A stretch of 64,000 nucleotides of DNA from an uncultured bacterium (GTDB taxonomy: Bacteria; Omnitrophota; Omnitrophia; Omnitrophales; Aquincolibacteriaceae): NCBI GenBank assembly GCA_964434115.1, contig CAYSSX010000004.1, positions 17,684-81,683 on the forward strand, in the 5' to 3' direction. This document shows positions 3,211 to 27,453 of the stretch, one piece after another. The notes beneath the pieces were generated by a model that was not told where the DNA came from, made no database searches, and saw only the letters and a program-made list of their open reading frames with translations. The position numbers were made by a program, and so were the translations under genes. Within the stretch, counting starts at the first letter, position 1. The number at the start of each line of letters is the position of its first letter.

Positions 3211-3355
3211 TCGCTTTTACAACGGAAACGCGATCTCATGGGAGCGTTGACTTCCTTCGAAGCGGCGGATGGCCGACCGAAAGGCGCATCATGAAGCGGA
3301 AATCTTTTGGTAAAAGAATGGATTGACGCGAAATGGTTCGTGCGCCTGGAGGCGC

Positions 3356-3378: not shown

Positions 3379-3387
3379 TTTGCCGGC

Positions 3388-5120: not shown

Positions 5121-5136
5121 AAACCTCAGCCAAAAT

Positions 5137-10984: not shown

Positions 10985-13900
10985 TTATGCGGCCTTGGCT
11001 GTGGCCTGGTAGGCGGCCAGATACGTCCCAACCGTCTCCGAAAGAAGGCTTTGAATCGACGGCATAAGGTAGCCCTGAGGTCCTGTTGAGGCAGTAACGC
11101 CGGCTTTGCGGAGGAAATCTGCCAGGATTTCTCCCCGTCGTTCGGACCCAAGCTGGTCTTTAAGCTCCACTGCGGCCAAAAGCTGAAGCTGGGTCATTCG
11201 GACCAGCAATCGCGCCTGGTCTTCTTCCCCTAACTTCCGGATTTCATCCGCGTTCAGAAGAAAAGCCGGAATAGACGCATCCAGAGATTCATCCCCCGCG
11301 GGTGCCTGAGCCAGCGAAACCGCCACGCTTTCCTGTTTTAAACGGTTGGCCATCACAGCCTCTTCCTGGGCACGAACTTCAAAAAGACGCTGTGCCGATG
11401 GATTTTTCTGAAAAACACCGTAGGTGAAAAAAGTCTCTTTGATTGCCGAGGCACCTTCTCCGGCAATGTAAACCACCGGCTGGGAAGGCACGTTAACTGC
11501 CCCCTGAACAAAAAGTTCTACAAACAGCTCACGGACCCGCGGCGAGACCGCCTGGAAAATCCTGGCGGGCAGAACGGCCTTCCCCCCTTGTGCAATTAAA
11601 TTGGAAAAGCTGCGGGCCAGACCTGTCTTTTCCCGCGCGTTGATTCTAAGCGGCCGCGCCTGAACAGAAGAGGGCATGAATGTCATCACACCCGGAAGTC
11701 CTTCAGCGGCAAAAGCAACAGGCAGAATTCCTGCGGTCATCTGAACCGCAACCGCCAGCCTTTGCTGTGTGCGGAAGTTACGGTCTTCTTCTGAAGGCGA
11801 AGCCAAACGAAGTTCGGAGCGCGCCATAAAAACAGTAGGTTCACCTCTGGGAGGTACGGCTTCTTTGCGCCAATTCAAATAGTTATCAACCTGGACTTCC
11901 GGTGACTGAAAAAGGATACGCATCGCTGCGGCCATAGTGCCGTGCCCGTAAAGAACAACCGTCTTGCCGGCATACTTTTCGTTGAGCTTGAGCAGAAGTT
12001 CCCGCGCACGGTCCAGCAGGGTAAGAAAATTTTCACCGCCAGGAGCTTTCATTAATGCATTCAGATTCCGGTAAGCTTCCATAAACTTCTTTTCTTCCGC
12101 GCCCATTTCAGCTTCAACTTCCGCAGCATCTTTTCCATCCCACTCCGCAAAATTAATTTCAATGGAGTCCGGCTCCACCTCTGCTTTTGCGGGAAGTCCC
12201 GGAACAGTCTTGACTGCCTCCGCCAAAGAAATCTCTGACGTTTGTTGTGTCCGGCGAAGCGGAGAGCGAAGGAAAACAAGACCTTCTGCTTTTAAGCCTT
12301 GCTGCTGGATCCATTCCGCAAGCTTCGAAGCGCCTTCCACAACCTGTCGTTTCCCATCCTCGTTAAGGAGGTTTTCATCTTTTGCGTCCGAATGTCCGTG
12401 AAACACGCCGCGCTTGTTGGCATCTGTTTCGCCATGAGGAATCAACACAAGGTTAAACGCGAGCGGCGGCTTCTCATAGCCGGGACGATAGCCGATCTGC
12501 CCGTCACGACTTTTGAGTTCAAAGCGGAGTTTCTCCAGCAAAGCCTGATAGGTCTGCATGTTCGCTTCGTCTCCCGGCCGAAGGCTGGCCGCCAAATAGG
12601 CTTCCTGCTCGGGGCCAAGTTCAAAAACGGCCCGTAAACGGTTCCTGTATTCAAGCGCGGGTTCTTTTCCGGAGAAAACCTTGAACATGGCCGCTGACCC
12701 CAAAACCGCAAGTTCACGGGGATCGGAATCACTGCCGGCTTCCGGTTTTTTGAATTTCATGATGATTCCGCGGTCCACACTTTTAATGACAAGGTTTTGG
12801 CTTTCGTCCCAGGAAAAGAAGAAATTGTCCGGACGGTAATCAATGTAAACATAACCGCCCTCCTTCAGGGATTCGATCAACCCCAGCCATTTTTCCGGAA
12901 ACTGTTCCTGGAAACGCTGGATTGCGGCATTATCAGCACCTTGAAGAAATCCAGGCAGGGTTTTCCCTTCTACAAACGTCATCACAATCGCTTCAGGCAT
13001 CGAAATGCCCAATTCATTCTCCTCTTCAAACACCTGCAAATTCCGGGGAATGACCTCCTTTTCTGGAGCATCCCCCACCTTGCTGAAAAAATTGTCATTC
13101 ACATCGATTTCAACAGAAAGCTGTCCCTGCGTGCTCATTTTGTCGACCGCATCCGTGATATCCAGACTCGTGCCGCCAATCACTTTCAGCACCACTTTTT
13201 GGCCGGTCAAAACATTTCGAAAAAGATAGGCGTCTCCAAAAGTACCGGCACCCAGTTTTTTAACAAACTCATAATCTTGGCCTTCAAGCCTGGCTTTATA
13301 CTTTTTAAATAATTCGAAGATGCTTTTTTGCGCACTTATAGGCCGGGTCGAGCCCGCGTCCTTGAAAGCTGGTATTTGTAATTCAATGGAATCGAGGATT
13401 GCTGCGGCTTCATCAAAGCGGGCCGCATCACCCAGCATCCGGGCTTCAAAGAAATTCAGGTTTTGCTGAATCAAAGGTTTTGCAGGATTCTCTATACGAT
13501 AGGCATTTATAAGCGAATGGGCCGCATCGTAATCCCCTTCGTCAACCTGTTTCGCAATCGCACGCAGACGCTGATGCTCCTCAAAATCCAATGATTCTGA
13601 AACCTTTGTTCCTTCTGCCTCGGTGCGGAGTTCGGAACGGAATAGCTGCGGAATTTCTTTTTCAGGGGCTGCAATGTCCCTCAGGCGGCCGATCGCCTCA
13701 GAAAGATCAAGATCCCGAATCTCGGCATCGACCTGCCAGTCTGTAGTCCTGCCCGTAACAGGCACAATGATATGTTTGCCCTCTTCCGCCAGAGCAGGCA
13801 GAACCTTTTCAAATTTTCTACCATAAACCGCATTGGTGAGCGGCAGAAAGGGAGAAAGTTCGGATTCGAGATAACGCTTCACACCCAGCGTTCCCACATA

Positions 13901-16900
13901 CCCGAGTCCAAGACTGAGAATCAAGCGCGCCATCCGGTTGTTGTCCTGATAAGGCACGCGCATGACCGCGTCCGCCATGCCGCGGACAATCGCATAAGTT
14001 GTCGGCTCGCCTGTTGCGGCAATGCCATCCACATAACGAAGTGCCGTGGGATCAAAAACAGCCTGGTCTTTGGGAATCAGGCGGCCCGCTTTAAGAGAAT
14101 TAAAAATATGATCCACGCCAGGAACCTGGGTCAGAAAAACCTGGATGCCCGGACGAATCAGTTTTGCCTGCGCAATCCCGCTGCCCAGTCCAGCCGAACC
14201 TCCCGGAACCCAAAAACGAACCTTGTCAAATTCCGCTTCGCTTCCGACAAATTGAGTAAAGGCCTGAAAGTCCGCGGAAGAAACGGGTGTTTTTCCCTTT
14301 GCCGAAACTTGCAAGCGAAACCACTGATCCAAAGCTTCAAGCATGATGACGGCATACGCCGCAACACCCATCGCAGAACCGTGCCGGATATAATGGGCGC
14401 TGTCAGGATGAGCTTTTGCGTATTGATCCACATACTGACTGGCATCTTTGTAAGCTTCAAAATAAGGGGCCTTGCTTTCGGCATCGATACGTGATCTTTC
14501 AGCCTCACTCGCTCGGGCATAGGCACGCAGTTCATCTTCAGAAAATTGACGGTTGACCACCACCGCGCCTAGATCCTTCATGGCTTTGACTTTTTCAGGG
14601 TTTGCGCCCCGGGGAACAAAAATGACCGCTGAAAGCTGCTGGGCATAAGGCGCATAATAAGGATGCTTTTTAAGCTTCTGCACCAGTGAGGCCACGGCCT
14701 TACCCTGATTTCCGGTAGATTCCGCCACCACCATTTCAAGCTGGGAAAGCTTCTCCGGATTTTCAAAGTAACGCGTAAGAAGGTCCGCTGCGAGGTAAGG
14801 TTTGAAAGAACCTTCCGGAAGTTCCGGCAAATAATAAAGGTAGTAGTGATTGTTACGGCCTGTCAGGCTCTTCATCGTCTGATTCAGCATCTCATTGCGA
14901 ACTAGAGGAATCTGAAACCGGCCTTCACGAAGATCATTCTCGCCAATCTCGCCGATCCCCGTCCAAAAATGCTTGAGGATTTTCTGGGCCCGCTCAATCA
15001 TTTCAAGCGTCACTCCGGGGAAAGGCGTTACCGGGCCTTCCCTGCGCCAGAGATTGCTTTGAACATCCACCAGATCACCCAGAGGGTAGCGAAGCTCTGC
15101 ACGCGGTAAATTGAAATGCGTTTCGTCCAGAAGGAAATGTTCCAGGGATTTCATTCCTTCGTTCAAGGCTTCCGCTTCATACCCCTTTTCTTTTAGCGAA
15201 TCTAAAAAAGTTTTGTGATTGTCATAAACACTGTCAGGCTCCTTGGCAAAAAAAGAGTTTAGAACGCGGGCCTGATGAAGAAGATCCACAAGGTCCCGGC
15301 CTTTCAAGGAATTCTTCTTTGCGCTCCGCAAAATTTTCTCAAAGACAACAACCGCATCAAGGAGTTTCGGGTAATAGATCTCAACGCTTCTTTGCCTTTC
15401 GCTATAACCCCGGGCGATTTCCCGGTCCATCAGGTCGATCAATCCGTCAAGTCTGGCCGCAAAAGGCGAAAGGCTGGAGGGTTTTTCGGATTTCCCAAAT
15501 TTTCTGAGCGCCCTGTCGGTATGAACTTGCGCGGTCGCCAAAATCTCAAGCACGTCTTCGTAAATCGTCACATCACCCATCGTATGCGTTCTGCTGTGCT
15601 CCGCGATTTCAGCAAGCCCTTCGGCAGCTTTCTTTGCCCTGAGCAGGGTGCGTGACTGCATGCCCTGGGATTTATCCAGAGCCAGGGCTTCCAGCGCAGG
15701 TTTCAGCAATCTGTTGAACACATGGTATTGAAAGGTCGGAGTGATCACCGCCAGGGCAAGACGGTAACGGTTGAAAACAACTTCAAGCTCCTGCTTGGCT
15801 GTGAGATCTTCGGGAATTTCAGCCAGTCCAAGTTCCTGGCTGTATTTTTCTTCCAGAAGATGAATACGCTCTTCGGCATACACGGCAGCCCGGCGGGCAC
15901 GGCTGACAGCTGCCGCATTGTTGCCTGGAGACTCCTGGTAATGTGCAGCCGAGGAATCCCAGCGGGAGCGGGCCTCGCGCCAATAGTGATAACTTCGGAC
16001 GAGGGTCACAAAGGAGTCAAAATCATTGTCTTTTCTCGCGCCCGCTTCATACTTCACCATTTGAAGGTCTTTGTGCATCGCGGCAAAAAGGTGCTGAAGC
16101 CCGATCGCGGTGTAAGGCGACAATGCCGCCTGGGTATCCCCCATAGCCAGCGCGAAAGCATAATTTTCCTGGTCATATTTAGGCCAGCCTTCCAGGACTT
16201 CTTTCTCGGCTTCGTCCCGAAAACCAGCCATCATCAGGAGTTTTGCCTGCAGGCCGCGGACCAGGAAAGGAGCCACCCCATCATCTCTTTTAGCCAATAC
16301 TTCCAGCGGTTCAAAAAACGCGGCGAGTTCTTGCGGACTTCCAAACCTTCGCCCTTGGTGCCAAAACTGATAGATCCGGTCCACAACGAGCGCCGCAGGA
16401 TTTTCGATGTCCCAGGGTGTTTTCTGCCGCGGTGTTTTTTTCTTGCTGCCTTGTTCTTTCGGCTTTTCAGGAATCAAACGGATCTGAAAAAGAGTCTGCA
16501 TCAGAAGATCAAGGACAGCATCTGATTCAGTAAAAGCCAAAAGATCTCCTGCCTGCTTTGCTTTTGCAATCGTAGCGTCTTGATCTGTATCTCGCACCCA
16601 GGGCGCCTGCTGCGCACGCAGCTCAGAACGTTTTCCGTCCGAGGGCTCATCCTGAACACCTTCCCGATCCAGACGTTCGGCAGCTTCTTCCTGATCAAGG
16701 TACAGGTTGAGTCTTCCCACCGCTTCCTCAAAAGCCCTTTTGTTGTTAAGTGCTTTTGCCGTTTCGACCTCATTTAACCGGAGACGGAGGTGCCAGGCTT
16801 TCTCAGAATCTCCAAGTTCTGGAGAGACGGCAATAGCTCCAAGGAATGAACTCATCAATTCTGCGGAACGGAAATAGATCACACCGGCTTTCTTTTCCCG

Positions 16901-19900
16901 GTTGTCGCCAACCACGTGGAAAGGAAGAAGCCCTGCCATAAGGCTTGCGTGTGTAAATAAAAGACGTTTGCGCCAGGCAATAGAGTCGGGCTCAAAAGGG
17001 AAAAGCTGATCACTGTCCGGATCCATGATGAATTCCATAAAATCTTTCGAAAATTGACCAATGCGCCCCAGCGTCATCAAGGTCCCGGAAGCTTCGTCAT
17101 CAAAATAATTAGCAAAAACTGCCGGCCCTTTATTCTGAGACGGGAAGTTTACGTCAAAATGAAAAGTATCATGATGGTCTAATGCCAGGTCGTAGTATCC
17201 GAAATAGTTGTGAATGAGTTTGGCAAAATCATAAAGCGGGTCATTTCCTTCCGGGATGTACTTTGGATCGATCAGTTTGAATCCTTGAACTTTTCCGCTT
17301 CGAAGGTATTCAAAGGGATCAATAAGAATATTTCCGGTGTGTAAATCGCCATGCTGCTTGGCTAAATAGGGCGGCTTGAAAAGTTCCGGGTGGAGCTGAT
17401 TGATCCTCCGGAAAACACGAAGCATCGTCGGAAGATTGAGAAGCAGCGGTTCCTTTTCCCCTTTCATCTCCAGATAAGGCGCAGCAAGAAGCTTTTTCAT
17501 CCAAGGAGACTTTTCCGCGGCCTCCCGCCAGCGCTGCTCCAGTTTCTGAAAGTGGTATTTCTCGGCAAAATCTTCCGGAGTTGGACTTTGCTCTTGTGAA
17601 TAAAAATCCGGCGTCAGGGTTCTATAAATATGCTTGATGGTTTCCAAGAGGCTTTGATTGGTTCCAAGATGCCCGCCCATCATACGGCCAAAAGCATCAT
17701 CACCGCTCGGGAAAGCCTGCTGAATCATGCTGGACAAGCTGGGCCATGAAAGATCCTGCATCCTGACTACTGTCCAGCCGTCATGCTCTTCAACGGAATA
17801 AATTTCAGGGAACCACCGCCCCGCAGGATTTCCGGTTTTTTGAAGATCCTGCATGTACCGGGCTTCTGCCAGAAGCTTTCCTTTATCCTCTTGTGTTTTA
17901 GCACGTTTTTCGATAACCGTTGTCCCATCGGTATTAATAATCCTTTGCACCTGACTGTAGGAACCGCCCGCGAGTTCTGTCTTGACCGTTTCATCGATTT
18001 CATAGTCAGAGCTTCGCTGCGTCGGAATCCAGAGCCTGAAAACACGGCCGAAAGATGACGCTTCCATATAGCCATAACTCAACAGGTAAAGCATGGATTT
18101 GTTTCCTGCAAAAGAAGGAAAGAGAGAGATTTCCACATGAGGTTCTTTTCCCATCGTCATGGGTTTCAAAAAAATGATGCCGTCTTTGTCTTCGGGAATC
18201 CCCATCAACATGGAATCAATCCCGCGTTTGAAACGAATGGCATTGGAAGGTTGAAACGGGATATCGCGGCTTAGCTGCCTGTACATTTCCTCGCGTTCGG
18301 ACGCGCTCCAGACTTTCACGCCTTTCTCTGAGGCCCCGGGCAGATTTTCCGTCCGTCCGACAAACGCCCAGCGGATATTCCGGCTTTCAAGCGCTTTCGA
18401 TATCTTTTCTACGGCTTCAAAATTCCGGGTTTCAAGCGCTGCATAAAGTTCTTGAAAAAAACCTTCATCCGGAACCGAATGCATCGGTATCAGGTAGCGC
18501 AAAACATCGTCAAGGGGGGTCGGCCGGATTGTATTTCTCATTTTGGCGTCTTGAGGCCTTTGGACAGAGGGGCCTGTCCCGGGAGCCTCATCTTCGTCAT
18601 GGTGCCACATCCGAGTTGAAGTGAGATTATTTCCCGGAGGTTCGTCCCATGATGGATATAGTTTTTCATAAGCAGTACGGACAGCTTCCGTGAACGTATA
18701 ACGGGTCAAAGCTTCCGAACCGTTGAGCTGAACGATACCGCCGCGGTGATTGTTGATGGACTGAAGCGTCACGCCGGCAACATCGCCAGCCCAAACAGGG
18801 TGCCGGACCTGATGGTCATCCAGAACGAGTAGATTCTCGCTTCTTCCCTCCATCCATTGAATCGCGGAATGAAAAGGATCCCTTTCCTGTCCGGTTTTAG
18901 AACCATAAACCCAGCCCAAACGGATCACGGTGTTCCCAGTTTTACTCAGTACCGCTTTTTCTCCTGCGACTTTTGTCTCACCGTAAAAATTCAGCGGTTT
19001 TGTTTCAGCCTTCGGTTTATAGGGCGCCTCGGTCCCGTCAAAAACATAATCGGTAGAAAAATAAACCATCTGCCCGGGAAATGTTTGGGCAATCCGTTCA
19101 GGCACGGAAACATTCAAGAGCTCCGCGCGGGCCTTATCTTTTTCAGCCTCCTCAACACCCGCAACGCCGGCAGCATAAACCACCACATCAGGTTTCAGTC
19201 GATTTAAAAGGGCGTCCACCTCTCCGTCCTGGGTAACATCCAGCTTGATAAGATCCTCATCTTCTGAGGAAAAGGACGTTCCCATCACCTGGGGATACAC
19301 CCTCCGGAGCAAATCATACACCTCGCGCCCCACCCTGCCGCTGGCACCTAACACAAGCACTTTACGGGGAGGAAAAAGCATTTCGAAAAGCAGACCTTCG
19401 CGCAAAGCGTGCTCCCCGCCGCTGTTTTCCTCCAACGCCTTCAAAAGTTCCCGGCTCAGGAAAAGCCGGTTTGCTGTTTCGTCGTAATAGGCTGCCACTT
19501 GGCCGCGTTCCTCATGGTCGATCCAATCAAAAAGGTAAATCCCGAACTCTTTTTCCCGTATCTTTTTCAACCTCTTCTCGTAGGCTTCCGTGAGCCAGCG
19601 TTCCAGGGCGAAGGGGACGTTCCGCTCTTGGTAAGCCCTTTGTAAGGCTGCCAACAGCGTTCCGGTAAGTTCCGGGTGCGGGGGCTGCGCTTCAATTTCA
19701 GCGCGCCGGTCAGAGAAAACTCTAAGGGGCTCCTCTCCCACCCTTATCCACCTGGGCGATAGGATTGCGGCATCCGCGGCACGTTCACGCAGCGTTTCAG
19801 CATCGCCGAACGCAAGGGGTTTCATGTCAGCGTCTGCACGAAGTTCTGCACGGCTTCCTATTAAATCTTTGGCGGCTGTCAATTTTTCAACCTTGCGAAT

Positions 19901-22900
19901 ACCCTGTGCCTCGGTCCAATGAGCAAGTGCCACGGCTTCGCTCTTCCGGTTCAAAGCCACCAGGCTAGTAATCTTGAGATCAAGCGCGCTTGAGTCCCGG
20001 GGCTCACGGAGCAAAAGGGCTTCAGCCTCCGTCAATGCCTGTTCGAATTTCGGCTGTCCGTTTCTCCTCTGGCGGGTGATGTGCTGTCCCCAGTGATAAA
20101 GCACCCAGCCTTTTTCGACCGCCAGGAAAGGGCTCCAGGGGTCCACGTTTTCAAGGGCTTCGTTCAAAATCTGCAAGGCTTCGTCATACCGGTTGGGCTG
20201 GCTATGGTCATAGCGCCGCGTGTTTGACATCGCGACAATCACACGGGATAAGGTCGAAAGCTGCACATCGTAAGGCATGTCCTCTTCATCCACATTCCGG
20301 ACATCCTCAGCGATTGCTTCATAAACCTGAAAAGCTTCGAAGTTTCTGCCTTGCTGCTGAAGACTCCGCGCTTTCTCAATCCCCACGCTGACACTATGCA
20401 TAAAATCATTGAGTGAGCGGCTGTGCTTACGAACGTATTCAAGCCCTCGGCGATTCATCTCACGCCACACAAACGCACCATAAACATTCATGCGGCGGAT
20501 GAAGTCTTGGGAAAGCGCCGCTTTGTCAGCGTCCTCAAGCCCCAGGGTTTCAAGAACTTCCGGAAAGGCTTTAACCTCTGCATCCTCAAAAACATCTTGG
20601 GGCAATGAGTAAGACTTCAGTTTTTCTCTAACCTTGATCTCCAGATTGTCCAAATCCTTCCAGGCTGAAGCCACCCGGGCTTTGCGGAATCCTTCCGCCA
20701 CGCGGTCCATAAGTGCGTCTAATTGATCAAGCAGCGCTTCGCGGCGGTCCTCAACCAAGCGGGCCGAAACGATTTGCTGAGTCATTTGAATTACCAGTTC
20801 AGATCCTTGAAGGGTTTCCCGGTCATAGGCCGCCGCACCGGCCAAAAGTTTTTCTTCAAGCTTTGGTAAAAGAGAGTCAAAATCAGGAACCGGTTCAATC
20901 TCAGCACTTGATTCCCCGGTCTGAGAAGTTTCCTGCGCTTGGCGCGTCCCAACCGCTGACTTCACTTTCCCAACGGACGGCAAGGCGGCCGTCTCTTCCG
21001 CTCCAAGACGACGGGCCGCGTCTTCAATTTGAGAACGCAAGGCATCGCCGTCAAAAACACTTTCGGCCAGCAGGCTGGACGCAGCGCTCAAAGCGTCACG
21101 GGCTTCTGAAGTTTGCCCTTTTGAAGCATAAACCCCTGACTGCTTAACCCATAGCTCCGCCAGCAAGCGGGTGGTCTCGGGCTCCGGCGAAATCAGCCAA
21201 ACGAGATTGTCCGCGGTCAAAAGGGTGTCTTCCAAAAATTCCGCTTCATGATAAATTCCGAGAAGATAGCGGACAGCCCGGTTTCTTTCCGCATTGTCGC
21301 GGTCCAAATCCCAGACAATGGCCGTAAAAACAGTTTGTGCAAGATCCTCTTTTCCGGCTGCCCAATTCGATTCTGCCAGGGCCAGAGCGTCGGGTGTTCC
21401 ATTCACCGCGCCATCCACAGCCCATGGGGAAGAAGCCCTTTCTTCAAATTCCTCCTGCAGTAAAACAACAAGGTCCGCGAGCCTACGCTGCCACAAACGT
21501 CTGTCTAAATTATCTAAAAATTCTTTCTCTTGAATAACCCGCCCGAACTCAAGCGCTTCCGGACGCTGCGGAATGGTTTGTCCCGTCAAAATCATCCGCT
21601 TCCAATGATCCCGAAGCTGCTTTTCAAGAACCGCAAACCCCTCGGTCAAATCCCTTATGGCGCGGGCATGTTTCTGCTGGGCCTCCAGTTTTTTCGCTTC
21701 CAGAGCTTCACGGGCTGATCGGGCAGCTGCGGCCTGCTGTTCTTTTTGGACGCGAAGCGTCTCAAGCTGCTGCTGAATAAGGGAGCGGGCTTCGACAACC
21801 CATACTGCCTGAACCGTTTGCTCAGAAAAAAGCCCGGCCATTTCATGTTCCAGAGAAGCCTCGCGGAAAATTCGCGACTCATCCGCTTTTAATTCGCGGT
21901 CAAAATCCTGAAGGATTTGTTCAAGACGCCGGACGCTTTCTGCTTTTGCTGCCTGACGGCGCAGAAATTCCATTTTTGTTGAAAAGGAACGCCGGAAACG
22001 ATCGACCGCGTCGGTAAGTTTTTGTTCAGGGGTTACTTGCGCTTGAGTTTCTTCTGGAGTAACAGCGGCAGGCACCGGAAGGACTTCCATTTCTTCTTGC
22101 TCAGCAGGCAGTAAAATTTCATCTTTCTTCAAAACTTGCGCCGGCTCGCCGGTTTCATCTTGATCCGCCACCGGGGCTTCAGATCTCCCCCGGAATCCGG
22201 AAAGGGACTCCAGGAGTCCGCGGTAAAGACGCGCCGCAAGCTGAAGAACCGCTGCTTTTAAGGCACTCAAAACATTCCGGATTTTTTCTCTCAAAGGCAG
22301 GCGCATATCCTGCGGCCAGGCCTTGCCAAGCTCTGCACTGTCCGCACCCTCCCGAAGGAGAATGCTACGTTCAATCAGTGCCAGTTCATAAGCCAATCTG
22401 TTTTCAAGAATCTTTTCAATCCGTTCAGCACGCCGGAGCTGCTCGCCCTTATAAACCCCCGAAGCTTCACCTCCGAACACTAAGGAAGAGACGGTGGCAA
22501 AAAGGCCGGGCTCATCGTCTTTTTTCCTTTTAAATTTTTCTTTGAATTCTTTAGTCAGTTTTTGGCGGGCTTTCAAACGCTGGGAGGGCTTCCGATCAGA
22601 CGACTGCGTCCGGTACTCCGCGGCGGCTGCCCGAATGGCTTCCACCCGATCATCATAATCATCGAGAATAATGCGCCGGTAAACAAGACGAAACCGGTAA
22701 AAGGCCAGCACGGTCACCACGGCGGTTCCGGCCAAAGCTCCCGCCCAGAAAAGAGTCTCGTTAGTCTCAAAATCCCTCAGCTCGGAACGGGCGCCGGCGC
22801 CGTCTTCTCCTTCTGGGAGATCCTCTCGCGCGGCCTTGGCAAAAGACGCGAGAAGCCTTCTTTGCTGGGTTTGATTCCCTGAACTGAGAACCGTCCGGCG

Positions 22901-25900
22901 CTTGGGAATCCAGGTGTTCAAAAGCTGCTGTGCCAGACGGTAGTACCGCCGGGCTTTAATGGAAACCCCGCGAAGAATCTGCTCCGCGGCATTCAGATCC
23001 CCATGTTCAAAAGCAACACGGGCCGCTTCATAGGTTTCTTCAGAACGGATTTTTTCCCGCCACACACGCGACAGATCAAACGGGTATTTGTATTTCGATT
23101 TCAATTCCTTTTCCAGACTAACAGCCTCGCGGGTTCCCCCCGCATACTCCCCGCCTTCCATTTCATAAATGTAGGCATCCTTGATCTGCGTCCGGGTTTT
23201 GGAATGCACAATAAAAATCAATTTCTTCTCTTCCGGAAAATGCAGAAGCGTCACCGGATGATCGCGGTATTCGCCGGGGAGCTGATAATCTCTTCCTTTA
23301 ATTTGAAGACGTCCGGCATTGTCGCCCCGGGCGTGAATCGTAAACCCGGTCACTTGCCCCGCATGTTTCTCGAAAGTTTCACTTTGAATCCGAAGCTTAT
23401 ACGAATCCAAAGATTTTCCCTGGAAATCACGGAGCACAAGAAAGTCGTGGGTGGCTTTGGGCCGGCTTTTGTTTTCAGCCAATCTCACGGACACAACACG
23501 CTGCGGGGTTTTGGCTGTTTCGCCGGCAGTTTCTGTTTTTTCCATTTCAAAAACATACGGAGCTGCGGGCGGAAGATTTTTCCACTCATCGGTTCTGATC
23601 AAAACGCCATTTTCCAGGGCCGCCGACATCCAAACGCCGTCTTTGGATGCATCCGCGACCTGAACACCGGTAATCGGAGCGCCTAACGAAGCCCTTCCGT
23701 AACTATCCGCTTTAAAACGTGTGATCGTGCCTGTGAAACTGCCGATCTTGTCATAAAACCCTTCGCGGGCAACATCCACAAGAGCGCCGCTTTCATTGCG
23801 CTTCAAAATAAGGTCATAAGTCTTGTCTCCCACCTTCACGGAAACAGGCGTTCTTCCCTCCAGGGTGACTTCCGCTTTTTTTAGTCCGGCGGCGCCCGGG
23901 GCGACATAAATATTTTTTCCGGGAACGCGGACATACGCCGTGTCATGAGCACTCCCGCGCTGGGATTTTTCGCGTCCCAGCAGAAACCCCTTCACCACGC
24001 CTCGGAAATCCTCGGAAGGCGCCCAAATTCCATCCATGCGCATGACAAAAAAGCCTTTCCGTTTTTTCCCCTCCTCATCGTAAACCTCGTAGACAGGATG
24101 CACCGTTGCGGAGGCATCAATCACCTTGAGAAGATTTCCCTGGGCATCCGTGATGACGCGGAATTTATTCTGTGGATTCTGAACATCAAAGTTCTGGGTG
24201 GTCAAAACCCAAAAGGTCTCTTCCGGAAATTGCGGGTGGGTAAAGGTGTAGTCCGGGGAAACAAAAAAAGAATCGTTGCTGCGCGAGAATCCGAGGGTCT
24301 CGGACTCAATAAAACTGAAAAGATAATTATTGTCTTCAACCGTGTTTTCATAGAGACGGATCTGGCGGAGCCCCTTGTCTCCCGGAAGAGCATCTTCTTC
24401 AAGGATGACGGTTTTACCTTCAAGCGATTTTGGGAAACTCAACTTCACAGCGTCTCTCGACAGCGGCAGCCAGGGATTGGCCCCTTTAAAGAAATCCGAG
24501 CCCAGAGGGATTTTAATCCGGGTCCTGTCATCATCCGCCGCAGGAAGATCTTCTGCCTGAAGGGCCCGGAGAAGTTCTTCCCGCTCTCTCGGAGAAGAAA
24601 ACGGGCGAACGGAATCGCTTTTAGGCCTCGCAGAGAACCTTTTAGGCTGGGGACGAAGCGGGGTTGCGGTTTTTCTGATCGTTTGCTTACGGGCTTCCCT
24701 GCGGCGCTCAGACTCTGCAGCTTCAACACGGCCGAGGGCGTCAGCAATAAGGCGGTCGGCATAGGGGGATTCCATATTCCGGCGGCTAAAATCCAAAAGC
24801 TGGCCAAGAGTTGATCTTTCGCGCTGTTCTTCCAGCAGAGGGAGCAGCTTTGAGAGATTTCCATCAAGCCAATCCGTTAAGGTTGAAAAAAGAATCCGGA
24901 CCGTATTGAGATCGCTCTCTTTCCCAATAAGCTCTCGAACCTCGGTTTCGTAGCGGACAAATTTGAGGAAGACATTAATCGTGGGGTCTTGTTTTTTACG
25001 TCCAGGAGTTTTTTTGAGTCCTGTTAACAGGTCAATGTCATCATAGACAGCGGCCAAATCCTTCCAGGGTTTTTGAGCGCGTAATTCTGACCGCTGGGTT
25101 TCCTGGACACTTTTAAGCGAGGTCTCAACCTGGTCCCCATAGGCCCATGTTGAATAAGTTCGGCTAAACTCAAGGAGCTGGCCCAGCGTCTCAACATCTT
25201 TGTTCTGTTCCAGCAATGAAAGAATATCGTACAGGTGTTTCTCAAACCAATCCGTAAGCGTTGAATAGAAAGTGCTCTTATTTTTACGAATGCTCCGGCG
25301 ATCACTTCCTGCAGTCAGCAGAGCTTCAAGTTCTTTTTGATGCCGTATGAACTTCAAGAAAATTTCAGCTTCGCTGGGCCTGAACGTTTTACTGCTTCCA
25401 GCGAGCCGGTCAACAGCCTTATACGCCTCGTCCAAATCCTTCCAGACTTTTTGAACACGCAATTCGGCCCGCGAAGATTCCGTTTTTTGCTGAAATTTGA
25501 AAGAGGTCCGGGGAAGCGCACCCAGTTCAGCCCCCCGCTGAACAATCGCCTGTTCAAGAGCTTCACGGCGTGACGCGATAGCCGCCGGCAGATCCCCTTG
25601 CCAATCACTCATCCACTGCGCCGCGCGAATCTGAAAACGAGAAAGGTCAAAGGGTCCTGTTTTCCCAGTCATAGCCGCCTGATACTTTTCCGAGCCTGAG
25701 AAATCTGAAAAATGCGGGGAGAGCACGGCATACGGCAGGTTATGTTTGCGGAAAGCCTCTGTCATTCCTTTGCGGTGAAAGCCGCCCGCAACAATAACGA
25801 CACTTCCCGCAGGCGAAGCCGGATCCAAAAGCCTGCTGATCACGGGTGCGGCCATCACCGTGTCCCGTTTCATGGCCAGCGTGTAAAAACGCGCCGCCTG

Positions 25901-27196
25901 ATCCGCGAGGGTTCTTAGTTCGGAAGGGATTTTTTTCTGGCGCGGGAAACGCTCCTGCCAAGACTGATACTCCTCCTGGGTGAGTTCCAGAGAGAAAAGT
26001 TTTTTCAAAAGCAGGTAATCACGGAACGCTTCCAGGATGTCTTTTTCTGAAGTTTTCTTCTGAAGCTTCTCAAAAATCCGGTTTCTTAAGAGTTCTTTCT
26101 CCTTAAAAAGCAAAGGCGCCTCAACCTCTTCTGCCAAAACACATCCCCCCTGCTGAAGAACCAGCTGTGGGTAATCTTCAAAACGGAAGCCCTTGGCGGA
26201 CGCTTGCTGATAAAATTTTTCCCAGACTCGCCGCCGATCCAGCCCCGAAGCTTCGCCGCTTTTTTTTCTGAGAAGAAATTGCAGATCTTCAGTTTCCGCG
26301 GTAAGGCTATTTTCCTCAATCCAATTCAGGAGTCCGGCCGTTTCCTTCTCAACCGCAGCCTCTTCAACCAGAGACTGCCGTCTCATGGCTTCAAAAAAAC
26401 GGACAAGCATCGGCCACTGGAGCTGAAGCTTCGGATCCCCCCATTTCGCGCCTAAAATCTCCCGGGATTTTTTTTGAAGATCATTAAGATCCTGTTCAAG
26501 GCTTGCCTTTCCCTTTTCGTAATCGACCCAAGCGCTGAAAGAACGGTAAAGCTCCGGAGTCATGCTGCGGGAGGCTGCCCTTTCGATCTCTCCCAGGTGT
26601 TTCTCAAGGAGTTTTGAGGATTTCTCACGGGAAGCCATAACCGTCTGATAAACATTCAAATTACTCAGATAAAGATCTTTGCTTTCTAAACCAAATGCTT
26701 GGGCGGGGGATGCGTTTGGAGTTTCAGAATCCCTTTGCGAGAGCAGAAAAAGCTCGGGGCCTCCGGCCTCTGATTCCTGAAGTAAAAACTCGGCCGCTTG
26801 CCTATTGAGTTTTCTATCCTCGAAAAAACGAAGTCTGTCAATTTCCAGCTCACCGATTCCCCCTTCTATAAAAATCTGGCGGACACCTTTCTTTTCCTGC
26901 AAAAAATCCAGCATCCCTTCCATATTTTTTTGAGCTTCCTGAATCCCATGCGGATCCTGAATAAAAAGAATGCTTTTTTCGGGAAGTTCACGGAGGCCCT
27001 TCGGAAGCCAGACTTCATCAAGGGTTCCTAATAAAGCGGGTAAGCTGCGAAGATCGTTTGGCGCAATCAGGGTTTCTGCGGCTCTCGGAGAAGGCATCAC
27101 AATCTGCGGAACCTGCGCTAAGCCCGTATCTTGAAAAAGCAGGCAAAGGGCTGTCAATATCGCGAGTTGTTTTTTTGCCCGGAAAAACAATTTCAT
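10985..27196 (-). CDS. Giant multidomain protein, 5403 aa, with a signal peptide, a single TM helix and mosaic enzyme-like domains.
   Basis: A single uninterrupted ORF of 16,212 nt; codon counting confirms 5403 aa. N-terminal signal peptide MKLFFRAKKQLAILTALCLLFQDTGLAQ. TM helix at aa 1481-1504. Recognisable domains are listed as separate features below. Confidence 0.85.
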   Translation of the reverse strand: MKLFFRAKKQLAILTALCLLFQDTGLAQVPQIVMPSPRAAETLIAPNDLRSLPALLGTLDEVWLPKGLRELPEKSILFIQDPHGIQEAQKNMEGMLDFLQEKKGVRQIFIEGGIGELEIDRLRFFEDRKLNRQAAEFLLQESEAGGPELFLLSQRDSETPNASPAQAFGLESKDLYLSNLNVYQTVMASREKSSKLLEKHLGEIERAASRSMTPELYRSFSAWVDYEKGKASLEQDLNDLQKKSREILGAKWGDPKLQLQWPMLVRFFEAMRRQSLVEEAAVEKETAGLLNWIEENSLTAETEDLQFLLRKKSGEASGLDRRRVWEKFYQQASAKGFRFEDYPQLVLQQGGCVLAEEVEAPLLFKEKELLRNRIFEKLQKKTSEKDILEAFRDYLLLKKLFSLELTQEEYQSWQERFPRQKKIPSELRTLADQAARFYTLAMKRDTVMAAPVISRLLDPASPAGSVVIVAGGFHRKGMTEAFRKHNLPYAVLSPHFSDFSGSEKYQAAMTGKTGPFDLSRFQIRAAQWMSDWQGDLPAAIASRREALEQAIVQRGAELGALPRTSFKFQQKTESSRAELRVQKVWKDLDEAYKAVDRLAGSSKTFRPSEAEIFLKFIRHQKELEALLTAGSDRRSIRKNKSTFYSTLTDWFEKHLYDILSLLEQNKDVETLGQLLEFSRTYSTWAYGDQVETSLKSVQETQRSELRAQKPWKDLAAVYDDIDLLTGLKKTPGRKKQDPTINVFLKFVRYETEVRELIGKESDLNTVRILFSTLTDWLDGNLSKLLPLLEEQRERSTLGQLLDFSRRNMESPYADRLIADALGRVEAAESERRREARKQTIRKTATPLRPQPKRFSARPKSDSVRPFSSPREREELLRALQAEDLPAADDDRTRIKIPLGSDFFKGANPWLPLSRDAVKLSFPKSLEGKTVILEEDALPGDKGLRQIRLYENTVEDNNYLFSFIESETLGFSRSNDSFFVSPDYTFTHPQFPEETFWVLTTQNFDVQNPQNKFRVITDAQGNLLKVIDASATVHPVYEVYDEEGKKRKGFFVMRMDGIWAPSEDFRGVVKGFLLGREKSQRGSAHDTAYVRVPGKNIYVAPGAAGLKKAEVTLEGRTPVSVKVGDKTYDLILKRNESGALVDVAREGFYDKIGSFTGTITRFKADSYGRASLGAPITGVQVADASKDGVWMSAALENGVLIRTDEWKNLPPAAPYVFEMEKTETAGETAKTPQRVVSVRLAENKSRPKATHDFLVLRDFQGKSLDSYKLRIQSETFEKHAGQVTGFTIHARGDNAGRLQIKGRDYQLPGEYRDHPVTLLHFPEEKKLIFIVHSKTRTQIKDAYIYEMEGGEYAGGTREAVSLEKELKSKYKYPFDLSRVWREKIRSEETYEAARVAFEHGDLNAAEQILRGVSIKARRYYRLAQQLLNTWIPKRRTVLSSGNQTQQRRLLASFAKAAREDLPEGEDGAGARSELRDFETNETLFWAGALAGTAVVTVLAFYRFRLVYRRIILDDYDDRVEAIRAAAAEYRTQSSDRKPSQRLKARQKLTKEFKEKFKRKKDDEPGLFATVSSLVFGGEASGVYKGEQLRRAERIEKILENRLAYELALIERSILLREGADSAELGKAWPQDMRLPLREKIRNVLSALKAAVLQLAARLYRGLLESLSGFRGRSEAPVADQDETGEPAQVLKKDEILLPAEQEEMEVLPVPAAVTPEETQAQVTPEQKLTDAVDRFRRSFSTKMEFLRRQAAKAESVRRLEQILQDFDRELKADESRIFREASLEHEMAGLFSEQTVQAVWVVEARSLIQQQLETLRVQKEQQAAAARSAREALEAKKLEAQQKHARAIRDLTEGFAVLEKQLRDHWKRMILTGQTIPQRPEALEFGRVIQEKEFLDNLDRRLWQRRLADLVVLLQEEFEERASSPWAVDGAVNGTPDALALAESNWAAGKEDLAQTVFTAIVWDLDRDNAERNRAVRYLLGIYHEAEFLEDTLLTADNLVWLISPEPETTRLLAELWVKQSGVYASKGQTSEARDALSAASSLLAESVFDGDALRSQIEDAARRLGAEETAALPSVGKVKSAVGTRQAQETSQTGESSAEIEPVPDFDSLLPKLEEKLLAGAAAYDRETLQGSELVIQMTQQIVSARLVEDRREALLDQLDALMDRVAEGFRKARVASAWKDLDNLEIKVREKLKSYSLPQDVFEDAEVKAFPEVLETLGLEDADKAALSQDFIRRMNVYGAFVWREMNRRGLEYVRKHSRSLNDFMHSVSVGIEKARSLQQQGRNFEAFQVYEAIAEDVRNVDEEDMPYDVQLSTLSRVIVAMSNTRRYDHSQPNRYDEALQILNEALENVDPWSPFLAVEKGWVLYHWGQHITRQRRNGQPKFEQALTEAEALLLREPRDSSALDLKITSLVALNRKSEAVALAHWTEAQGIRKVEKLTAAKDLIGSRAELRADADMKPLAFGDAETLRERAADAAILSPRWIRVGEEPLRVFSDRRAEIEAQPPHPELTGTLLAALQRAYQERNVPFALERWLTEAYEKRLKKIREKEFGIYLFDWIDHEERGQVAAYYDETANRLFLSRELLKALEENSGGEHALREGLLFEMLFPPRKVLVLGASGRVGREVYDLLRRVYPQVMGTSFSSEDEDLIKLDVTQDGEVDALLNRLKPDVVVYAAGVAGVEEAEKDKARAELLNVSVPERIAQTFPGQMVYFSTDYVFDGTEAPYKPKAETKPLNFYGETKVAGEKAVLSKTGNTVIRLGWVYGSKTGQERDPFHSAIQWMEGRSENLLVLDDHQVRHPVWAGDVAGVTLQSINNHRGGIVQLNGSEALTRYTFTEAVRTAYEKLYPSWDEPPGNNLTSTRMWHHDEDEAPGTGPSVQRPQDAKMRNTIRPTPLDDVLRYLIPMHSVPDEGFFQELYAALETRNFEAVEKISKALESRNIRWAFVGRTENLPGASEKGVKVWSASEREEMYRQLSRDIPFQPSNAIRFKRGIDSMLMGIPEDKDGIIFLKPMTMGKEPHVEISLFPSFAGNKSMLYLLSYGYMEASSFGRVFRLWIPTQRSSDYEIDETVKTELAGGSYSQVQRIINTDGTTVIEKRAKTQEDKGKLLAEARYMQDLQKTGNPAGRWFPEIYSVEEHDGWTVVRMQDLSWPSLSSMIQQAFPSGDDAFGRMMGGHLGTNQSLLETIKHIYRTLTPDFYSQEQSPTPEDFAEKYHFQKLEQRWREAAEKSPWMKKLLAAPYLEMKGEKEPLLLNLPTMLRVFRRINQLHPELFKPPYLAKQHGDLHTGNILIDPFEYLRSGKVQGFKLIDPKYIPEGNDPLYDFAKLIHNYFGYYDLALDHHDTFHFDVNFPSQNKGPAVFANYFDDEASGTLMTLGRIGQFSKDFMEFIMDPDSDQLFPFEPDSIAWRKRLLFTHASLMAGLLPFHVVGDNREKKAGVIYFRSAELMSSFLGAIAVSPELGDSEKAWHLRLRLNEVETAKALNNKRAFEEAVGRLNLYLDQEEAAERLDREGVQDEPSDGKRSELRAQQAPWVRDTDQDATIAKAKQAGDLLAFTESDAVLDLLMQTLFQIRLIPEKPKEQGSKKKTPRQKTPWDIENPAALVVDRIYQFWHQGRRFGSPQELAAFFEPLEVLAKRDDGVAPFLVRGLQAKLLMMAGFRDEAEKEVLEGWPKYDQENYAFALAMGDTQAALSPYTAIGLQHLFAAMHKDLQMVKYEAGARKDNDFDSFVTLVRSYHYWREARSRWDSSAAHYQESPGNNAAAVSRARRAAVYAEERIHLLEEKYSQELGLAEIPEDLTAKQELEVVFNRYRLALAVITPTFQYHVFNRLLKPALEALALDKSQGMQSRTLLRAKKAAEGLAEIAEHSRTHTMGDVTIYEDVLEILATAQVHTDRALRKFGKSEKPSSLSPFAARLDGLIDLMDREIARGYSERQRSVEIYYPKLLDAVVVFEKILRSAKKNSLKGRDLVDLLHQARVLNSFFAKEPDSVYDNHKTFLDSLKEKGYEAEALNEGMKSLEHFLLDETHFNLPRAELRYPLGDLVDVQSNLWRREGPVTPFPGVTLEMIERAQKILKHFWTGIGEIGENDLREGRFQIPLVRNEMLNQTMKSLTGRNNHYYLYYLPELPEGSFKPYLAADLLTRYFENPEKLSQLEMVVAESTGNQGKAVASLVQKLKKHPYYAPYAQQLSAVIFVPRGANPEKVKAMKDLGAVVVNRQFSEDELRAYARASEAERSRIDAESKAPYFEAYKDASQYVDQYAKAHPDSAHYIRHGSAMGVAAYAVIMLEALDQWFRLQVSAKGKTPVSSADFQAFTQFVGSEAEFDKVRFWVPGGSAGLGSGIAQAKLIRPGIQVFLTQVPGVDHIFNSLKAGRLIPKDQAVFDPTALRYVDGIAATGEPTTYAIVRGMADAVMRVPYQDNNRMARLILSLGLGYVGTLGVKRYLESELSPFLPLTNAVYGRKFEKVLPALAEEGKHIIVPVTGRTTDWQVDAEIRDLDLSEAIGRLRDIAAPEKEIPQLFRSELRTEAEGTKVSESLDFEEHQRLRAIAKQVDEGDYDAAHSLINAYRIENPAKPLIQQNLNFFEARMLGDAARFDEAAAILDSIELQIPAFKDAGSTRPISAQKSIFELFKKYKARLEGQDYEFVKKLGAGTFGDAYLFRNVLTGQKVVLKVIGGTSLDITDAVDKMSTQGQLSVEIDVNDNFFSKVGDAPEKEVIPRNLQVFEEENELGISMPEAIVMTFVEGKTLPGFLQGADNAAIQRFQEQFPEKWLGLIESLKEGGYVYIDYRPDNFFFSWDESQNLVIKSVDRGIIMKFKKPEAGSDSDPRELAVLGSAAMFKVFSGKEPALEYRNRLRAVFELGPEQEAYLAASLRPGDEANMQTYQALLEKLRFELKSRDGQIGYRPGYEKPPLAFNLVLIPHGETDANKRGVFHGHSDAKDENLLNEDGKRQVVEGASKLAEWIQQQGLKAEGLVFLRSPLRRTQQTSEISLAEAVKTVPGLPAKAEVEPDSIEINFAEWDGKDAAEVEAEMGAEEKKFMEAYRNLNALMKAPGGENFLTLLDRARELLLKLNEKYAGKTVVLYGHGTMAAAMRILFQSPEVQVDNYLNWRKEAVPPRGEPTVFMARSELRLASPSEEDRNFRTQQRLAVAVQMTAGILPVAFAAEGLPGVMTFMPSSVQARPLRINAREKTGLARSFSNLIAQGGKAVLPARIFQAVSPRVRELFVELFVQGAVNVPSQPVVYIAGEGASAIKETFFTYGVFQKNPSAQRLFEVRAQEEAVMANRLKQESVAVSLAQAPAGDESLDASIPAFLLNADEIRKLGEEDQARLLVRMTQLQLLAAVELKDQLGSERRGEILADFLRKAGVTASTGPQGYLMPSIQSLLSETVGTYLAAYQATAKAA
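11897..12463 (-). other. Histidine phosphatase (phosphoglycerate-mutase superfamily) domain, aa 4912-5100 of the giant protein.
   Basis: LVLIPHGETDAN matches LVRHGETxxN, with Arg apparently replaced by Pro. The second catalytic His is present in VVLYGHGTMAA. Confidence 0.5.
12497..13279 (-). other. Eukaryotic-type protein-kinase-like domain (atypical), aa 4640-4900 of the giant protein.
   Basis: Gly loop LGAGTFGDA, checked in DNA at 13235-13252. VVLKVI matches VAIK. IDYRPDNF matches HRDLKPEN, with the catalytic D and N retained. IKSVDRG matches IKIxDFG, with DFG changed to DRG. Confidence 0.5.
13877..14869 (-). other. PLP-dependent fold-type II (Trp-synthase beta / threonine-synthase-like) domain, aa 4110-4440 of the giant protein.
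   Basis: PEGSFKPY matches the PLP-lysine motif PxGSFKDR. ESTGNQGKAVA matches SxGNxG. VPGGSAGLGSGIA is a Gly-rich phosphate-binding loop. Confidence 0.5.
16937..17509 (-). other. Aminoglycoside/choline-kinase-type phosphotransferase-like domain, aa 3230-3420 of the giant protein.
   Basis: Brenner-type catalytic motif HGDLHTGNILID, with a downstream LIDP metal-binding-like motif. Checked directly in the DNA at 17330-17353. Confidence 0.5.
18677..19366 (-). other. RmlD-like (dTDP-4-dehydrorhamnose reductase / NAD(P)-dependent epimerase) domain, aa 2611-2840 of the giant protein.
   Basis: VLVLGASGRVGREV matches the Rossmann GxxGxxG. MVYFSTDYVFDG matches the RmlD FSTDYVFDG motif. NFYGETKVAGEKAV matches the catalytic YxxxK region. 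Confidence 0.6.
22685..22756 (-). other. Predicted single transmembrane helix of the giant protein (aa 1481-1504).
   Basis: LFWAGALAGTAVVTVLAFYRF is followed by RLVYRR (positive-inside). This predicts about 1480 aa outside the membrane and about 3900 aa in the cytoplasm. Confidence 0.5.
24722..25480 (-). repeat. Two tandem ~125-aa repeats in the N-terminal extracytoplasmic part of the giant protein (aa 573-825).
   Basis: Copy 1 (aa 573 onwards) is RAELRVQKVWKDLDEAYKAVDRLAG...STLTDWFEKHL...LGQLLEFSRT. Copy 2 (aa 700 onwards) is RSELRAQKPWKDLAAVYDDIDLLTG...STLTDWLDGNL...LGQLLDFSRR. The DNA copies are about 80% identical. A third short RSELRAQQAPWVR copy lies at 16592-16630. Confidence 0.7.
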
Positions 27197-27413: not shown

Positions 27414-27453
27414 AAACAAAACAAAAAAAGCCCCTCCCGAAGGAGGGGCTTTG
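27414..27453 (-). terminator. Rho-independent terminator downstream of comEA.
   Basis: Minus-strand reading gives GCCCCTCC-ttcg-GGAGGGGC (8-bp GC stem) followed by TTTTTTTGTTTTG. Confidence 0.6.

Follow-up and report, generated by a model that had tools for sequence, protein, structure and literature searches.

Does a single hydrophobic helix in the middle of a very long protein make that protein a receptor? The question is raised by a 16.2-kb open reading frame (ORF) of 5,403 amino acids (aa), which lies on the minus strand of a 64,000-nucleotide (nt) stretch of DNA, here called the window, from an uncultured bacterium of the Omnitrophota (family Aquincolibacteriaceae; GenBank assembly GCA_964434115.1, contig CAYSSX010000004.1, positions 17,684 to 81,683 of the forward strand). 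An initial annotation of the window had proposed that a signal peptide and one transmembrane (TM) helix place about 1,450 residues in the periplasm or on the cell surface, coupled to kinase-like, phosphatase and sugar-metabolism modules inside the cell. We favour, with somewhat better than even confidence, another explanation: the ORF is a modular polyprotein whose modules would be separated by an endopeptidase recognising R-[S/A]-E-x-R, and the helix would anchor one released module. The helix should probably be annotated as the anchor of that module, not as the TM segment of a giant receptor.

A pentapeptide marks every module boundary

The pentapeptide R[S/A]ELR was found eight times in the giant ORF, against an expectation of 0.036 copies and a maximum of one copy in 2,000 shuffles. 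The eight copies coincide with eight of the eight module boundaries and split the ORF into nine modules, M1 to M9 (Table 1). All eight sites lie outside Pfam domains, and the two junctions covered by AlphaFold2 (AF2) models (motifs 1 and 3) come after residues with a predicted local distance difference test (pLDDT) score below 50. The window's other 31 genes, 13,242 aa in total, contained no copy of R[S/A]ELR. All eight sites were kept, with diverged flanks, in P0109, a colinear ortholog of 5,436 aa that includes M4 and shows 44-68% identity per module.

The codons used for the motif were not constant. The Arg codons differed between sites (CGG, CGT, CGC and AGG), and at site 6 all five codons differed from those of an 88%-identical syntenic relative, L002 (CGT GCA GAG CTT CGC versus CGA TCT GAA CTG AGA), with the peptide staying within the motif. 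Such codon variation under a kept motif indicates that selection acts on the peptide. An origin at the DNA or RNA level, such as a sense codon serving as stop, re-initiation at L/V/M start codons or a recombination scar, was rejected because both the Arg and the Leu codons vary, the Leu codons were mostly CTT, CTC or TTA, and site 6 shares no codon with L002.

Five unrelated enzyme domains and an N-terminal leader domain stand as several independent modules in one ORF. The M2 module (aa 581-701, window 25094-25456, minus strand) is a 40%-identical duplicate of the first approximately 115 residues of M3 (window 24737-25078, minus strand), and xQKxWKDL opens both copies right after the junction motif; a shorter ortholog, P0001, has one copy only. 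Within M3, aa 831-870 (window 24587-24706, minus strand) form a very basic, Pro/Ser-rich low-complexity linker, RRREARKQTIRKTATPLRPQPKRFSARPKSDSVRPFSSPR, with a net charge of +12 in 40 residues. This is the strongest charge cluster in the protein, and together with aa 1408-1447 (+10) it makes up the top two positive clusters outside M4, both of them in M3. The AF2 model of M3 was poor (pLDDT 64, predicted TM-score (pTM) 0.40) and Foldseek gave no meaningful match. M8 combines TPR-like, kinase-like and histidine phosphatase parts, and no family match was obtained for M6. The Pfam/NCBIfam scan of aa 1-2449 likewise gave no match. A word-indexed protein search with M4 and with M7 returned nothing, and it misses even P0001, which is 66% identical to M7, hence its result is uninformative.

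The hydrophobic helix and the two signal-like segments

The helix of the initial annotation was located correctly: window positions 22685-22756 correspond exactly to aa 1481-1504 on the minus strand, and the Arg-rich flank follows as described. Its apolar core, aa 1481-1500, is TLFWAGALAGTAVVTVLAFY, preceded by the acidic sequence DFETNE and followed by RFRLVYRR (R1501, R1503, R1507 and R1508). This core is the sole run of at least 17 residues free of charged, strongly polar or Pro residues in the 5,403 aa, and its region gives the top 19-residue Kyte-Doolittle (KD) window, at 1.83. On a Hessa-type insertion scale, with the values summed simply, the helix window scored +0.7 kcal/mol and was the only one near zero; the next best scored +5.3 or more. 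A hydropathy peak of 1.83 is unexceptional, being reached by 74% of composition shuffles, and was dropped as statistical evidence for the helix; a 20-residue run without charged, polar and Pro residues was seen in 4% of the shuffles. The helix was taken as real because P0109 has, where the two align, an apolar run of the same length, different in sequence and set in the same flanks (ETN..W...YRxRxVYRRxILxxYDxR). Judging from these features, we regard the helix as a genuine membrane anchor, with its C-terminal side predicted to be cytoplasmic. The N-out, C-in orientation given earlier was upheld by the acidic flank on the N side and the four Arg on the C side, and it holds in every model considered below. 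The helix starts 7 residues after junction motif 3, and the kinase-like domain follows approximately 3,100 residues and four motif boundaries downstream.

The N-terminus consists of MKLFFRAKKQ, an 11-residue h-region (LAILTALCLLF) and QDTGLA followed by QV, that is, n-, h- and c-like regions with an A-x-A-type site recognised by inspection. A signal peptide of 27 residues had been proposed; its features stood up and are conserved, 143 of 154 relatives having a positively charged n-region and then an apolar stretch, and the sequence makes cleavage after residue 26 more likely than after 27. In the AF2 model a helix (aa 2-25) leads into a disordered linker (aa 22-47). The whole protein of 5,403 aa contains two Cys only, C18 in the signal peptide and C352.

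The description of the helix as the lone one was right as far as strong apolar helices are concerned. It overlooked a second, signal-peptide-like segment at the start of M9, which ends in AFA-AE and is stronger in the orthologs (KD 1.61 versus 1.82 in P0109 and 1.75 in P0001). The counterparts in P0109 and P0001 end in AQA-A or ALA-A, like a signal peptide.

Orthologs with and without the helix

P0001 (2,351 aa), from another Omnitrophota genome, occupies the same chromosomal position as the window ORF, in the shared order ybeY, recO, folK, panC, aspartate dehydrogenase, uvrA, a helix-turn-helix (HTH)-cupin gene, the gene itself, glyQ, glyS, ppdK, rpoD and apt. It is composed of M1, M3, M7, the phosphatase portion of M8, and M9, with RSELR standing exactly at every junction. 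M4 is missing, so the beta-rich M3 is joined to the module of the pyridoxal phosphate (PLP)-dependent enzyme, M7, via one RSELR and with no TM segment between them. This layout indicates that M4, M2, M5, M6 and the kinase part of M8 form an insertion that is optional and has motifs at its ends. Read as single chains with functional signal peptides, P0001 and the giant protein would place the PLP enzyme (66% identical), the phosphatase and M9 on opposite sides of the membrane. An M3-like module was also found between two motifs deep inside P0048 (6,894 aa), again with no TM-like neighbour.

The syntenic relative L002 (region 1-6580, CAYRBY010000065.1), compared with window 15793-18045, differs in another way. 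The part for aa 3611-3801, inside M6, is replaced by approximately 100 nt with a frame change, and either the giant gene is split into two ORFs there or the assembly is in error; the break is not at a junction motif.

Junction motif and targeting signals across relatives

The motif was then counted in a family sample of 154 sequences (450,153 aa). The commonest 5-mers were RSELR (161) and RSEVR (120), which exceed the once-per-protein domain signature TGGFH (115). Strict motifs numbered 487 against 6.3 expected, and 92 of the 154 relatives (about 60%) carried the motif. The logo reads R-[S 77% / A 22%]-E-[L, V, A, M, I]-R, and the flanks contribute information only through small residues at -2, -1 and +1. 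Spacing between motifs had a median of 224 aa, and the first copy followed closely on the leader domain, its median position being 622. No enrichment of a vestigial start Met was seen after the motif. In some relatives two junction motifs lie 18-22 residues apart (P0008, aa 1346-1368; P0153, aa ~3171-3193 and 3716-3742), and RSELRPESRDSGIPLETGRSELR is one such pair; were the motif a cut site, these pairs would release short spacer peptides.

TM- or signal-like segments cluster behind the motif. Segments starting at most 40 aa after a motif numbered 57, compared with 24.2 +/- 4.9 (maximum 39) at random positions, and many of them are plainly signals of the N-terminal type. Twin-arginine (Tat)-type signals directly after the motif were found 16 times versus 1.9 (maximum 7), as in RSEVRMDRRQFLASVAAVALGG, RSEVR-MDRRQFLASVAAVALGG, RSEVR-AIDRRAFLGAAAGAAALLGLGS and ...QRRQFLKRAAVTAVGLG. 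Lipobox signal peptides in this place numbered three versus 0.28 (examples are RSELRVRSVIQRVTIFAAVAAMAGLVGC and RSELR-VRSVIQRVTIFAAVAAMAGLVGC), and Sec signals also follow the motif (...FLAPLSAWA-QQ). Of the 131 members whose N-terminus resembles a signal peptide, 63 lack any further TM-like segment across thousands of residues. In those that do have one, flank charge makes the first such segment N-in in 22 cases and N-out in 13; N-out is what a single exported chain would need, and the 22 do not fit it. Pfam scans of motif-rich and Tat-bearing relatives detected almost no domains.

The leader-domain family

A search with the first 1,600 residues gave 13 large proteins (1.6-2.8 thousand aa), all source-named ones being from Candidatus Omnitrophota. 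A profile of the shared N-terminal approximately 550 residues then recovered 10,233 representatives of 50%-identity clusters, 7,152 of them at E 1e-30 or better. Family members consist of a signal peptide and a TIKI/erythromycin-esterase-like domain followed by variable modules; in 150 of 150 listed members the leader domain was N-terminal, behind a signal-peptide-like segment, and lengths ranged from 537 to 7,823 aa. No Pfam or NCBIfam model covers the leader domain, and this very large Candidatus Omnitrophota family is apparently previously undescribed. A family-wide C-terminal module was also considered and rejected, only 4 of the 154 members matching M9.

Within the leader domain H83, E111, R444 and GGFH474 are invariant, and H83, E111 and GGFH474 were present in 14 of 14 aligned sequences. 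The AF2 model (pLDDT 81.8) begins with a helix, continues through a disordered linker and then forms an alpha/beta core that carries a helical insertion of approximately 280 residues. The best Foldseek matches in the PDB were Bcr135 (3b55/2rad/2qgm) and the erythromycin esterase EreC; these matches were weak (E 0.04-0.7, TM-score 0.2-0.28). With the insertion removed, PF04187 (ChaN, Tiki superfamily) gave sub-threshold matches to 9 of 14 members, with a best E of 2.2e-4 and bits below gathering. PDB sequence-profile searches with the leader domain, whole and insertion-less, gave no real match to any chain. From sequence and model together, the leader domain is likely to belong to the TIKI/Ere/ChaN superfamily. 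Its order H83...E111...H474 recalls the His85/Glu113 pair of Bcr135 and the 2His/2Glu site, and the same order is found in RRSP; it is unlike the superfamily in its helical insertion and in that all matches remain below thresholds. TIKI-fold hydrolases have a 2His/2Glu site and include site-specific endopeptidases (PMC6254334).

A proposed polyprotein model and its alternatives

We propose that nine modules are joined by disordered linkers in which each R-[S/A]-E-L-R serves as a protease recognition site. An endopeptidase would act in the cytoplasm, while the chain is being translated or soon afterwards, and set the modules apart; each module would then follow its own N-terminal signal. M1, with its signal peptide and TIKI-like hydrolase domain, would be exported by Sec, and M9, with a signal-peptide-like segment of its own, would probably be exported too; M2, M3 and M5 to M8 have no signal and would remain cytoplasmic. 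After cleavage the helix of M4 would lie a few residues from a new N-terminus. Because the tail is acidic and the C-terminal flank is rich in Arg, M4 would insert with the short tail outside and a body of approximately 950 residues inside, as a tether to the inner membrane. The motif, its place at module boundaries, its conservation, the signals after it, the helix with its flanks and the ortholog comparison are observations; the proteolysis, its compartment, its enzyme and the fate of each module are what we infer here.

Several points weigh against this proposal. No direct sign of cleavage was seen and no protease was identified: the Pfam/NCBIfam scan detected no chymotrypsin-like or papain-like protease module in the giant ORF, and no protease gene was found among its neighbours in the window. 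The leader domain is the sole universal protease candidate by fold, and its own signal peptide places it in the periplasm, on the wrong side. M5 and M8 each hold two enzymes without a motif between them. In 62 of the 154 members there was no motif copy and no other recurrent motif, so the leader domain is not strictly tied to the motif. The signals after the motif appear to prove module autonomy rather than cleavage, because internal Tat signals can work without a free N-terminus, as in actinobacterial Rieske proteins. The TM and signal assignments came from simple hydropathy and regular-expression rules, not from trained predictors. Finally, in the giant ORF and P0109 taken alone an uncleaved chain would be topologically self-consistent, with the signal peptide leading out, the helix back in and the M9 signal out again.

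The motif-less relatives (for example P0011, P0009 and P0012) form a subfamily of their own, with the signature HIQDAHCNYEAQ and phosphoglucomutase-type domains; they have the signal peptide as well as the leader domain and often lack a TM segment.

An unlikely alternative is that the chain is threaded first and cut later, as in flaviviruses: M1-M3 would go outside, M4-M8 stay inside and M9 go outside, and RSExR would then be cut on both sides of the membrane, the exported TIKI-like leader domain acting on the periplasmic sites and another enzyme on the cytoplasmic ones. This would give the always-first, signal-peptide-bearing leader domain a role as protease, in keeping with the site-specific endopeptidases of TIKI fold (PMC6254334) and the invariant H83/E111/H474, and the topology of the giant ORF allows it. 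However, two proteases of the same specificity would be needed in two compartments. PLP-, ATP- and NAD-dependent enzymes would be exported in P0001 and in the 63 TM-less relatives, Tat signals after the motif would be senseless for a chain already outside, and the basic clusters in M3 argue against export of that module.

Quite unlikely, in our judgement, is the absence of any cleavage: RSExR would be a conserved motif in the linkers to which a partner (a chaperone, a scaffold or a kinase) binds, and the protein would be one membrane-tethered multi-enzyme assembly anchored through the helix. The motif does look like a short linear motif within disordered linkers, such proteins have been read in print as fused multi-enzyme chains, and internal signal sequences can act without a free N-terminus. 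On the other hand, the lipoprotein signal peptides directly after the motif have to be processed at the lipobox Cys in order to function, many relatives break topological parity, and orthologous modules would swap compartments between P0001 and the giant ORF. Two Arg flanked by small residues, as in this motif, are moreover typical of protease sites.

The giant receptor of the initial annotation, one uncleaved bitopic chain with aa 27-1480 in the periplasm or on the surface and enzymes inside that respond to this ectodomain, is decidedly unlikely. The signal-peptide-like N-terminus and the N-out/C-in charge bias at the helix are what it would require, the order of signal peptide, helix and M9 signal suits it here and in P0109, and recent surveys of Omnitrophota giants read architectures of signal peptide and TM helices as single chains. 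The supposed unit is not conserved: P0001 lacks the helix module between the same modules, and in P0048 the M3-like module has no adjacent TM segment. The proposed coupling of ectodomain to enzymes through the helix gave way to nine motif-delimited modules, and three of the eight identical junction motifs would be outside and five inside. No sensor, HAMP or transducer domain was found in the Pfam/NCBIfam scans, and the kinase-like domain (aa 4642-4818) is far from the helix. Exported segments usually avoid clusters of positive charge (the positive-inside rule), and the +12 and +10 clusters both lie inside the supposed ectodomain. Hydrophobic segments in relatives do not alternate as a single chain requires. 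The statement that all catalytic-type domains are cytoplasmic was half right: the five Pfam-detectable enzyme domains (RmlD-like, APH, PLP-dependent, kinase-like and histidine phosphatase) are C-terminal to the helix, but the N-terminal leader domain, TIKI/Ere-like with invariant His/Glu/His, appears itself to be catalytic-type.

A variant in which the chain, led by its signal peptide, leaves the cell uncut and is processed inside a host or prey cell, with the internal signals used there, is very improbable at best. Very improbable too is that the helix is not membrane-inserted at all, the protein being soluble and the apolar run either buried in it or due to chance: the shuffles that match its hydropathy peak and the slightly positive Hessa-type sum speak for it, whereas an apolar run of 20 residues kept at the aligned P0109 site despite diverged sequence, as for a lipid-facing anchor, the conserved Arg-rich flank, the uniqueness of the run in the protein and its place in a linker right after a junction, outside recognised domains, all speak against it.

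Comparison with known systems

In viral polyproteins (flavivirus, picornavirus, potyvirus) one ORF yields many unrelated mature proteins, and short conserved motifs mark the junctions within flexible linkers; the topology of individual flavivirus products is set by internal signal and anchor sequences, and their cleavage occurs next to basic residues. The giant ORF resembles them in its length, its many unrelated modules and its short junction motifs in flexible linkers. It differs in being a chromosomal bacterial gene among housekeeping genes, for which cleavage is our proposal, and R-[S/A]-E-x-R is not known as a viral site.

Bitopic receptor kinases of the PknB type (Ser/Thr) also have one TM helix and a kinase-like domain on the cytoplasmic side. 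In those receptors the kinase lies right at the membrane, and kinase and sensor domain are conserved jointly. Here, by contrast, approximately 3,100 residues and four junctions separate the two, and the helix module is dispensable in P0001.

In MARTX toxins, arms of glycine-rich repeats and type I secretion go together with a cysteine protease domain that inositol phosphate activates and that cleaves after Leu. Like the giant ORF, MARTX toxins such as Vibrio RtxA are modular proteins of several thousand residues; their modules are swapped between strains and released by cutting in linkers. Unlike them, the giant ORF showed none of the repeat arms, type I secretion or cysteine protease domain, its modules look like ordinary metabolic or regulatory enzymes, and some modules of the family carry Tat or lipoprotein signals. 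The MARTX effector RRSP has the TIKI fold (PMC6254334).

A further likeness is to the giant 'multi-enzyme metabolic cluster' proteins of the Omnitrophota (Nielsen & Lui 2026, bioRxiv; West-Roberts et al. 2023, bioRxiv), which come from the same phylum and have a signal peptide, TM helices and many unrelated Pfam domains tiled on one ORF. The present protein, at 5.4 thousand aa, is below their cut-off of 10 thousand aa, and peptidase domains of the types C39 and S8, discussed in those papers, are absent from it. West-Roberts et al. (2023) asked, without settling it, whether Omnitrophota giants are cleaved, named C39 and S8 domains as possible proteases, and wrote that analysis module by module was prevented because cleavage points were not known. 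Nielsen & Lui (2026) gave DeepTMHMM topologies for whole chains, with up to hundreds of helices, and their text makes no mention of cleavage, motifs or linkers. A junction motif or a conserved leader domain was reported by neither study. Full-text literature searches for motif strings, Omnitrophota polyproteins and Velamenicoccus proteomics gave nothing relevant, the subscription literature being largely outside these searches.

A junction pentapeptide and a conserved leader domain that define a very large family of bacterial polyprotein-like ORFs appear to be undescribed. It is possible, at somewhat less than an even chance, that the Omnitrophota 'giant proteins' of the leader-domain family are cellular polyproteins, or 'protein operons', cut at R-[S/A]-E-x-R into many ordinary-sized proteins that are routed separately to the cytoplasm, the membrane, the periplasm (by Sec or Tat) or the lipoprotein pathway. 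If so, bacteria would use a polyprotein strategy on a large scale for ordinary cellular proteins. The sharply defined pentapeptide offers concrete candidates for cut sites and makes the question of whether the giants are cut directly testable; it also allows annotation and structure prediction module by module and predicts exact neo-N-termini. Should the same motif run through the giants of 10-150 thousand aa, the predicted topologies of a hundred helices would be artefacts of reading them as a single chain.

Features of the giant ORF and its surroundings

Table 1. Features of the giant ORF, with residue numbers of the protein and coordinates of the window.
Feature	Residues	Window	Strand	Remarks
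Giant ORF, M1-M9	1-5403	10985..27196	-	probable own transcription-unit start: terminator-like hairpin and Shine-Dalgarno (SD)-like GAGAGG upstream
Sec-type signal-peptide-like N-terminus	1-26	27119..27196	-	sequence inspection; conserved in 143/154 relatives
Leader domain (M1), likely TIKI/erythromycin-esterase/ChaN-like	~48-560	25517..27055	-	alignment, AF2, Foldseek, PF04187
Junction motif 1, RAELR, M1/M2	576-580	25457..25471	-	residues 566-576 pLDDT below 50
Junction motif 2, RSELR, M2/M3	702-706	25079..25093	-	
M3: helical head, very basic linker, beta-rich body, helical tail	707-1469	22790..25078	-	AF2 model poor
Junction motif 3, RSELR, M3/M4	1470-1474	22775..22789	-	residues 1459-1469 pLDDT below 50
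M4: anchor helix and ~950-aa region without family match	1475-2448	19853..22774	-	in P0109, absent from P0001
Hydrophobic helix, apolar core 1481-1500	1481-1504	22685..22756	-	hydropathy; conserved at aligned position in P0109
Arg-rich, predicted cytoplasmic flank, RFRLVYRR	1501-1508	22673..22696	-	kept as RIRYVYRR in P0109
Junction motif 4, RAELR, M4/M5	2449-2453	19838..19852	-	
RmlD_sub_bind / NAD-dependent epimerase-type domain, in M5	2612-2843	18668..19363	-	Pfam E 2.3e-43
APH-type phosphotransferase domain, in M5	3074-3328	17213..17977	-	E 9.4e-6, 26 bits vs cut-off 23.2
Junction motif 5, RSELR, M5/M6	3523-3527	16616..16630	-	
Junction motif 6, RAELR, M6/M7	4032-4036	15089..15103	-	RSELR in relative L002
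PLP-dependent enzyme domain (PALP), in M7	4128-4426	13919..14815	-	E 3.7e-15
Junction motif 7, RSELR, M7/M8	4520-4524	13625..13639	-	
Protein-kinase-like domain, in M8	4642-4818	12743..13273	-	below Pfam gathering score, 22.9 vs 31.7 bits
Histidine phosphatase domain (His_Phos_1), in M8	4916-5092	11921..12451	-	E 8.2e-23
Junction motif 8, RSELR, M8/M9	5126-5130	11807..11821	-	
Second, weaker hydrophobic element, start of M9, LAVAVQMTAGILPVAFA-AE	5147-5168	11693..11758	-	KD 1.61

The SD-like GAGAGG lies 9 nt 5' of the ATG of the giant ORF, which is the first start in the ORF. A terminator-like GC hairpin with a T-run (aaagcccctccttcgggaggggcttttttt) was found at window 27424-27452 on the minus strand, approximately 230 nt upstream of the gene start. 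The position of this hairpin suggests that the giant gene probably begins its own transcript, possibly running on into glyQ/glyS.

An LptF/LptG-family gene is present at window 44861-45958 on the plus strand. Going by this gene, the organism probably has an outer membrane with lipopolysaccharide, and the term periplasm would fit the exported modules. Downstream of apt, another large ORF of at least 918 aa (window 1-2755, minus strand) extends beyond the window start; its N-terminus (KKTNITALVLTLAVALNDPLTLYA followed by QN) resembles a signal peptide, and it has neither a Pfam match nor an RSExR motif. At the syntenic locus L003 its place is taken by a gene of 1,817 aa.

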